Of a DNA stretch of 1,198 nucleotides, positions 150-1,166 are shown one piece after another. Each line of letters begins with the position of its first letter. Positions within the stretch are counted from its first letter, which is position 1. The position numbers and the translations under genes are program-made. This DNA comes from Escherichia coli (GTDB lineage Bacteria; Pseudomonadota; Gammaproteobacteria; Enterobacterales; Enterobacteriaceae). The notes below the pieces were generated by a model, which saw nothing but the letters and a program-made list of their open reading frames with translations, made no database searches and was not told the DNA's origin. The DNA is taken from the NCBI RefSeq assembly GCF_003334765.1, contig NZ_QOWT01000083.1, one strand, 5' to 3'.

Positions 150-1166
150 TTAGTGAGATCTCTCCCACTGACGTATCATTTGGTCCGCCCGAAACAGGTT
201 GGCCAGCGTGAATAACATCGCCAGTTGGTTATCGTTTTTCAGCAACCCCTTGTATCTGGCTTTCACGAAGCCGAACTGTCGCTTGATGATGCGAAATGGG
301 TGCTCCACCTTGGCCCGGATGCTGGCTTTCATGTATTCGATGTTGATGGCCGTTTTGTTCTTGCGTGGATGCTGTTTCAAGGTTCTTACCTTGCCGGGGC
401 GCTCGGCGATCAGCCAGTCCACATCCACCTCGGCCAGCTCCTCGCGCTGTGGCGCCCCTTGGTAGCCGGCATCGGCTGAGACAAATTGCTCCTCTCCATG
501 CAGCAGATTACCCAGCTGATTGAGGTCATGCTCGTTGGCCGCGGTGGTGACTAGGCTGTGGGTCAGGCCACTCTTGGCATCGACACCAATGTGGGCCTTC
601 ATGCCAAAGTGCCACTGATTGCCTTTCTTGGTCTGATGCATCTCCGGATCGCGTTGCTGCTCTTTGTTCTTGGTCGAGCTGGGTGCCTCAATGATGGTGG
701 CATCGACCAAGGTGCCTTGAGTCATCATGACGCCTGCTTCGGCCAGCCAGCGATTGATGGTCTTGAACAATTGGCGGGCCAGTTGATGCTGCTCCAGCAG
801 GTGGCGGAAATTCATGATGGTGGTGCGGTCCGGCAAGGCGCTATCCAGGGATAACCGGGCAAACAGACGCATGGAGGCGATTTCGTACAGAGCATCTTCC
901 ATCGCGCCATCGCTCAGGTTGTACCAATGCTGCATGCAGTGAATGCGTAGCATGGTTTCCAGCGGATAAGGTCGCCGGCCATTACCAGCCTTGGGGTAAA
1001 ACGGCTCGATGACTTCCACCATGTTTTGCCATGGCAGAATCTGCTCCATGCGGGACAAGAAAATCTCTTTTCTGGTCTGACGGCGCTTACTGCTGAATTC
1101 ACTGTCGGCGAAGGTAAGTTGATGACTCATGATGAACCCTGTTCCATGGCTCCAGATGACAAACAT
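150..1166 (-). CDS. insH: IS5 transposase InsH (Ins5A), DDE-type; 338 codons from ATG at 1166..1164 to TAA at 152..150; alternative start at ATG 1130..1128 would give 326 aa ([12 protein letters not shown]...)
   Basis: Seen in sequence: uninterrupted 1017-nt ORF on the minus strand, verified codon by codon at both ends. Established knowledge: the translation is recognisably IS5 InsH, with IS4/IS5-type catalytic motifs: D155 in 'LVDATII' (codon 702..704), D232 in 'SADAGYQG' (codon 471..473), E288 in '[12 protein letters not shown]' (codon 303..305, R-x3-E-x6-K). Which ATG is used cannot be decided from sequence; neither has a strong Shine-Dalgarno. Confidence 0.95.

Follow-up and report, generated by a model that had tools for sequence, protein, structure and literature searches.

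Introduction

The insertion sequence (IS) IS5 is one of the classic examples that textbooks cite for bacterial antisense genes nested entirely within another gene. Recent work from the Saier laboratory describes an 'ins5CB operon' that is transcribed opposite to the transposase gene ins5A, from a promoter near the right-hand repeat of the element. A paper from 2024 again gives Ins5B and Ins5C a role in stimulating transposition. Here we analyse the antisense open reading frames (ORFs) of a complete IS5 copy in a stretch of 1,198 nucleotides from Escherichia coli (RefSeq assembly GCF_003334765.1, contig NZ_QOWT01000083.1). We call this whole stretch the window, and all positions refer to it.

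A sequence-only reading of the window had pointed to three ORFs on the + strand, and the ORF list agrees with it exactly: they span 199..465, 225..479 and 558..854 and encode 88, 84 and 98 amino acids. All three lie inside 150..1166, opposite to ins5A. The same reading had linked them to ins5B and ins5C, and rightly so: in the literature the ins5CB operon lies within ins5A and is read from the other strand. It had also stated that the individual ORFs could not be assigned to the named genes. They can be. The reverse complement of the published reporter primer PIS5b-Z-P2 is GTGAATAACATCGCCAGTTGGTTATCG, which is window 208..234, plus a TAA stop. Because of this match, ins5C is the frame of 199..465 with its start at GTG 208. 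The published start of ins5C (GTG, then NNIASWLS) and window 208..234 coincide, on the same element, the same strand and with the same gene order. Apart from 558..854 (ORF-B), no long ORF follows ins5C on the + strand, which fits the name ins5CB; judging from gene order ORF-B is presumably ins5B. The ORF at 225..479 has no counterpart in the IS5 gene nomenclature.

These ORFs are real, and it is confirmed that they are an already known feature. Our analysis indicates that all three are probably by-products of the transposase gene, without selection as protein genes, and we infer that their peptides have no function. The lengths of the ORFs, their fate in relatives of IS5 and the way in which their products change between IS5 copies all point in this direction.

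Results

Antisense ORF lengths are within chance expectation

The lengths of the antisense ORFs are within what is expected by chance from the transposase protein and its codon usage. We permuted synonymous codons within the transposase gene, which keeps both the protein and the codon usage. In the antisense frame that shares codon boundaries with the transposase (frame 0, the shadow frame), the longest stop-free run of the shuffled genes measures 135 ± 36 codons and the observed one 99 (P = 0.89). The second-longest run in this frame is just as ordinary (P = 0.50). In frame 1, the frame of ins5C, the shuffled genes reach 103 ± 32 codons and the real gene 97 (P = 0.53). Codons can also be re-drawn from E. 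coli usage, for which we used an approximate table from general knowledge; the P values for the three ORFs are then 0.55, 0.23 and 0.21.

For 225..479 and 558..854 the sequence-only reading had cautioned that long frames arise without selection, because both ORFs share codon boundaries with the transposase and their stop codons correspond to rare sense codons. The caution was well placed. Positions 225, 558 and 150 are all 0 mod 3, the five antisense stops in frame 0 are the sense codons TTA (twice), CTA (twice) and TCA (once), and both these five codons and the shuffle test agree with an origin without selection. The two ORFs would stay open because a stop needs a TTA, CTA or TCA codon in the sense gene and the transposase has only five of them.

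The frame of ins5C follows other rules, since 199..465 lies outside the shadow frame. It is shifted by one base against the sense codons, and the wobble bases of the two frames fall on the same positions. Whether it stays open depends on the Tyr, His and Gln codons of the transposase together with the third base of the preceding codon.

Compared with the IS5 family, the antisense runs of IS5 are unremarkable. Relatives with a guanine–cytosine (GC) content of at least 0.52 mostly have frame-0 runs of more than 100 codons, up to 285, at differing positions. In 7 of the 13 relatives at 53–57% identity, frame 0 is stop-free on the antisense strand across the whole transposase frame (317–371 codons). 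Most of these distant relatives are GC-rich (12 of 13 at 60–66% GC) with few or no TTA, CTA and TCA codons, which is why they keep the frames open. As a side observation, the antisense ORFs of a set of loci from Variovorax, Castellaniella, Ramlibacter and other high-GC hosts (L071–L084) encode 321–438 amino acids and are longer than the transposase ORFs. Choosing the ORF by length alone took the wrong strand in eleven high-GC loci.

Relatives of IS5 interrupt the antisense frames

We collected 170 loci. The plasmid matches listed by tblastn were all above 96% identity and of no use for divergence. Among them, 63 distinct haplotypes form the IS5/ISKpn26 clade; 64 had been recovered, and one degenerate copy (L068) was set aside. 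The antisense frames are open throughout this clade and are interrupted in the relatives at 66–81% transposase identity.

Relatives with freely interrupted antisense frames are what the sequence-only reading had named as evidence that would speak against genes, and we find 28 of them. They are distinct, their transposase ORFs are intact and several are present in multiple copies. Stops fall in the frame of 199..465 in all 28, mostly at 253, and in 225..479 in 19. The region of ORF-B carries one to six stops in 23 of the 28. The nearest outgroup, the degenerate Shewanella copy that we set aside, has a stop in ORF-B and an open ins5C.

Two side observations concern this comparison. At 253..255 ins5C is open because a Tyr codon of the transposase is preceded by AGA, a rare Arg codon (252..257); with CGT or CGC instead of AGA, the antisense frame would read TAA or TAG. 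The sites at which IS5 and ISKpn26 differ include several with rare Arg codons (AGA, CGA or CGG), and the AGA at 255..257 need not be special. Matches in E. coli at 80–90% identity were rejected: both that we examined are truncated right-end remnants. These two (L090 and L091, on E. coli plasmids) are about 250–320 bp long, have 82–85% identity and derive from a more diverged IS5-like element. They adjoin a histidine-type phosphatase pseudogene and explain at least part of the 80–90% identity class.

Antisense peptides drift at the sense-silent rate

If the antisense peptides were under selection, synonymous changes in the transposase should tend to preserve them; the sequence-only reading had proposed a check of this kind for the antisense frames. 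The peptides of ORF-B and 225..479 instead drift at the sense-silent rate. Between IS5 and ISKpn26, ORF-B contains eight transposase-silent changes and no amino acid change in the transposase, and 6 of the 98 amino acids of ORF-B are altered. Over 225..479 the antisense peptides differ at 9 of 84 amino acids and the transposase at one over the same DNA.

The product of ins5C appears to be more conserved, with 3 of 88 amino acids differing and seven of nine sense-silent changes silent in ins5C as well. This apparent conservation is uninformative, because 76% of transposase-silent mutations are also silent in ins5C by construction. As the wobble positions coincide, ins5C would look conserved automatically wherever the transposase is conserved.

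Rare variants among the 63 haplotypes give the same picture. Inside ORF-B, 10 of 25 are antisense-silent, compared with 10 of 28 in frame 0 outside the ORFs, in tests of low power. With a sample of 20 haplotypes there had been a hint of selection on ORF-B (8 of 12 rare variants antisense-silent, five of them transposase-altering changes of a single haplotype, L004/L087), which disappeared with the larger haplotype set. Across the broader family the profile of synonymous variation is flat, with no ORF-shaped dip.

A common transposase-silent stop truncates ORF-B

The IS5 copy in the phage P1 mod749::IS5 record served as our reference; its GenBank annotation gives it as 100% identical to J01735. 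The window differs from it at five positions inside the element. One of these, C>T at 552, is silent in the transposase and turns CAG into TAG on the + strand. The amino acid sequence of ins5C is identical to the reference, and that of ORF-B differs through this TAG. We also searched the phage P1 record for an annotation of ins5B or ins5C and found none, only the mobile element.

The stop changes what can be translated. In the reference, this frame opens at 480, so that the ORF-B of J01735 can have 122 (TTG 486), 118 (ATG 498) or 108 (ATG 528) amino acids. In the window 24 upstream reference codons are removed, and ORF-B can start only at GTG 558 or later, which leaves 98 amino acids and a truncated 5' side.

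Both alleles are widespread. The TAG allele occurs at approximately 3,909 places in 1,397 complete E. coli genomes, including at least six records with at least 40 copies. The CAG allele occurs at approximately 8,789 places in 1,828 complete E. coli genomes, including at least one record with at least 40 copies. These counts are based on 44-nt allele-specific queries, as earlier 61-nt queries were confounded by a second polymorphism at 570. The stop thus cuts off the 5' part of the reference ORF-B in about one third of the E. coli copies. It is missing in roughly half of the IS5/ISKpn26 haplotypes, and IS5-type as well as ISKpn26-type elements carry both alleles. The stop at 852, at the other end of ORF-B, is lost in one haplotype. 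Hence, the ORF boundaries are not conserved. Because both alleles at 552 have expanded, the elements can proliferate without any product encoded upstream of 558. A transposase-silent stop that is common in highly expanded IS5 lineages amounts to a natural experiment.

Antisense products match no known family

The antisense products have no match in Pfam, NCBIfam or PHROGs. Single-sequence AlphaFold2 predictions for both products show two long helices each, at low confidence (predicted local distance difference test, pLDDT, 60–63; predicted template modelling score, pTM, ~0.35). Hydrophobic helices are the usual outcome when an ordinary gene is translated in antisense. Among 5.8 billion proteins, ORF-B has 61 sporadic matches; all are unnamed or 'hypothetical', and none is named Ins5B.

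Public gene calls provide a side observation on such records. At five loci (L171–L175, locus 1240..2403) an ISKpn26-type copy sits in a prophage lom gene. The gene calls there list antisense ORFs of 84, 122 and 153 amino acids and skip the intact transposase ORF of 336 amino acids. The ORF of 153 amino acids starts at the equivalent of 927 and reads out into lom. These antisense gene calls are an annotation artefact that feeds 'hypothetical proteins' into the databases.

The element and its transposase

The coordinates of the main features are collected in Table 1. Of 5,426 complete E. coli genomes, 2,874 carry IS5 copies that match the window at 99.9% identity over its full length; IS5/ISKpn26 copies in the 5,426 genomes number roughly 13,800. 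The transposase matches the NCBIfam model NF033581 (IS5 family transposase; E = 1.6e-109). RefSeq annotates it as the sole gene, an 'IS5-like element IS5 family transposase' at 150..1130 with 326 amino acids from ATG 1130, and leaves the antisense ORFs unannotated. The Saier laboratory constructs also take ATG 1130 as the start of ins5A, as seen from primer PIS5a-Z-P2. A fourth stop-free stretch in frame 0 of the + strand (951..1198, 82 codons) leaves the element through its left end. Translation of the + strand through this stretch can continue out of IS5 into the interrupted gene and fuse with it.

Table 1. Features of the window and the basis on which each was placed
Feature	Coordinates	Strand	Length, start or basis
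Flank outside IS5	1..3		bases TAA
Complete IS5	4..1198	-	1195 bp; terminal inverted repeats and full-length match to E. coli IS5
Right-end inverted repeat	4..19		16-nt repeat, 94% complementary to 1183..1198
Transposase ins5A/insH	150..1166	-	338 aa from ATG 1166; ORF list
ins5C frame	199..465	+	88 aa from TTG; likely start GTG 208 (85 aa); frame 1
Unnamed antisense ORF	225..479	+	84 aa from TTG; frame 0 (shadow frame)
Polymorphic stop TAG	552..554	+	sense codon CTA (Leu); reference CAG = sense CTG (Leu)
Presumed ins5B (ORF-B)	558..854	+	98 aa from GTG; frame 0 (shadow frame)
Left-end inverted repeat	1183..1198		16-nt repeat pairing with 4..19

Evidence in favour of coding

Several observations weigh against the by-product reading, and we gather them here. 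Most of them would favour a different explanation, in which ins5C and ins5B are real but young genes whose overprinting on the transposase gene is confined to the IS5/ISKpn26 lineage. The products, which are small, hydrophobic and helical, would stimulate transposition; they might, for instance, stabilise the transpososome or the mRNA of the transposase. We consider this explanation unlikely.

The first observation is that none of the three frames is interrupted in any of the 63 IS5/ISKpn26 haplotypes, with the exception of a single stop in the penultimate codon of 199..465. As a test of openness this is weak. The expected number of stops is approximately 1.5 for ORF-B, 1.0 for 225..479 and 0.85 for 199..465. 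The single, trivial stop seen in the clade variants therefore stands against a total of about 3.3 expected (Poisson P ~0.15). Only 2% of sense-silent mutations are expected to create a stop in ins5C, and 8% in ORF-B.

The second concerns translation-initiation signals, which are one criterion for an overlapping gene. The sequence-only reading had seen no obvious ribosome-binding site before any of the ORFs. This holds for TTG 199 and TTG 225, neither of which is preceded by a sequence like Shine–Dalgarno (SD); the anti-SD energy at TTG 225 is +0.3 kcal/mol. It does not hold for GTG 558 and GTG 208. Before GTG 558, the SD-like GGTGGTGA at 543..550 forms an anti-SD duplex of -6.4 kcal/mol, in the top 5% of the NTG triplets of the element. 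Before GTG 208, the SD-like ACAGGT at 193..198 reaches -4.4 kcal/mol, compared with -4.0 for the transposase's own start. The ORF at 225..479 is the least plausible gene of the three. It is sometimes picked up by automatic gene finders.

The third is an excess of antisense-silent changes in ORF-B when all variants are counted: 13 compared with 8.3 expected (one-sided P ~0.04, uncorrected and from a normal approximation). The excess is marginal and weak, and five of the 13 variants come from one haplotype. This haplotype (L004/L087, on E. coli plasmids, transposase WP_039052448.1) deserves a description of its own. Its five changes in ORF-B, at the equivalents of 593, 623, 722, 794 and 803, all fall on the first codon position of the transposase and alter it (H>Y, G>S, T>P, E>K and H>Y), and all are silent in ORF-B. 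The pattern is not general in the larger sample; it may be due to chance or to a lineage with altered constraints.

The fourth is the sense synonymous divergence between IS5 and ISKpn26, which is 0.40 in 852..1130 and 0.13–0.16 in the ORF regions. We rejected constraint on the ORFs as the cause of this difference (Fisher P = 0.02), which is driven by the diverged 852..1130; the lowest divergence of all (0.05) is in 477..557, a gap without an ORF. Three copies (L010, L102 and L103) either are mosaics that combine an IS5-like 852..1130 with ISKpn26-like sequence in the rest, or are intermediates with 14–30 differences. Given the mosaic copies and the low divergence of the non-ORF gap, recombination between IS5 and ISKpn26 explains the pattern better than constraint on the ORFs.

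The fifth is published expression. According to the papers that cite them, Rak et al. reportedly found proteins from overlapping IS5 genes in 1982, and Rak and von Reutern are said to have described a third IS5 gene in 1984. Transcripts from the ins5CB strand were reportedly seen by Sawers in 2005, again according to citing papers. More recently, a Ptet promoter was placed outside the right end so that it reads into the ins5CB side, and IS5 insertion rose approximately twofold or more in two assays (Onstead et al. 2024; PMC11677980).

Against these points stand the results described above. The ORF lengths are within chance, the frames are broken in relatives with active-looking transposases, and even the nearest outgroup has a stop in ORF-B, although its ins5C is open. 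The peptides drift at the sense-silent rate, have no family match and yield low-confidence fold predictions. About one third of the E. coli copies, including lineages with at least 40 copies, carry the stop at 552. Moreover, the 2024 experiment altered transcription and not coding; neither ins5B nor ins5C was mutated by a stop or a frameshift. The Ptet effect fits an effect of RNA or transcription equally well, as coding and transcription are not separated by any mutant.

Transcription of the antisense strand

The effect of Ptet is the only functional result for the antisense unit (PMC11677980), and it could also mean that transcription or the RNA itself matters, with the ORFs as passengers. 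Transcription could act through the expression of the transposase, through DNA topology or through the proteins that occupy the right end. According to the literature quoted in PMC11677980, this end has a curved DNA region with a site for IHF, in keeping with such a role.

The sequence of the + strand offers little to such an explanation. A consensus scan of this strand found no sigma-70 promoter, and no Rfam family matches at or near its gathering score. Across the family, no region shows suppressed synonymous variation. Published reporters found the activity of the native ins5CB promoter to be negligible (PMC11677980).

There is one terminator-like site on the + strand, at 36..58, where a weak 5-bp stem GGCTGACTCAGTC is followed by ATTTCATTTC. 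It lies inside the right end and faces inward. One such site is about what shuffled sequences contain (mean 1.1). The site may have a bearing on a remark in the literature, according to which transcription from outside fails to traverse ins5CB. A paper on sigma-54 came up as possible IS evidence and was rejected, as 'IS##' in that paper denotes peak identifiers.

Discussion

The antisense ORFs of IS5 can be accounted for by the transposase gene in which they are nested. Comparative evidence provides no support for selection on the antisense peptides. If the ORFs are by-products, then weak transcription from the right end or read-through from flanking genes may still yield some translation, as the SD-like sequences before GTG 558 and GTG 208 would permit. 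The peptides would not be needed for the transposition of IS5-type elements.

The alternative of young, overprinted genes has the Ptet effect, the open frames of the clade, the open ins5C of the nearest outgroup, the SD-like sequences, the marginal excess in ORF-B and the older expression reports in its favour. In its most specific form, ins5C, ins5B or both would be authentic antisense genes of very recent origin, whose small, helical and probably membrane-associated peptides boost transposition when host promoters next to the element read into it. We judge this form to be quite improbable. If it were true, then how the insertion site is expressed would feed into the transposition rate from both sides.

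Antisense RNAs are in use in many IS elements (IS10 RNA-OUT, for example), but that transcription or the RNA itself is what matters on this strand of IS5 is very improbable. A transcript from the right end would have its start across from the 3' end of the transposase mRNA and not from its translation-initiation region. The Ptet effect, moreover, is a stimulation, where classic antisense RNAs inhibit.

We return to the by-product reading, which has a practical side. An ORF of this kind should be annotated or interpreted as a gene only once mutants have told its coding apart from its transcription. No new system is revealed by the antisense ORFs of IS5, which we compare here with systems that are already described.

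The verified antisense gene cosA of Pseudomonas fluorescens is, like the IS5 ORFs, nested inside a longer gene on the opposite strand. Cases of the cosA type rest on proteomic or genetic evidence, whereas the IS5 ORFs are judged by comparative tests, which showed no constraint.

IS10 RNA-OUT resembles the antisense unit of IS5 in being an opposite-strand unit inside an insertion sequence. However, RNA-OUT overlaps the 5' end of the transposase gene and inhibits, whereas the IS5 unit starts at the 3' end and its forced transcription is stimulatory. An IS antisense regulatory RNA is marked by a promoter and a structured RNA opposite the transposase start; in the IS5 unit the consensus scan and the Rfam search found neither.

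A further likeness is to the shadow ORFs of GC-rich or codon-biased genes. Like these, 225..479 and 558..854 share their codon boundaries with the sense gene and can be stopped only through the rare codons TTA, CTA and TCA. The ins5C frame differs from them, being the wobble-aligned antisense frame. The length of shadow ORFs scales with GC content, just as it does across the relatives of IS5.

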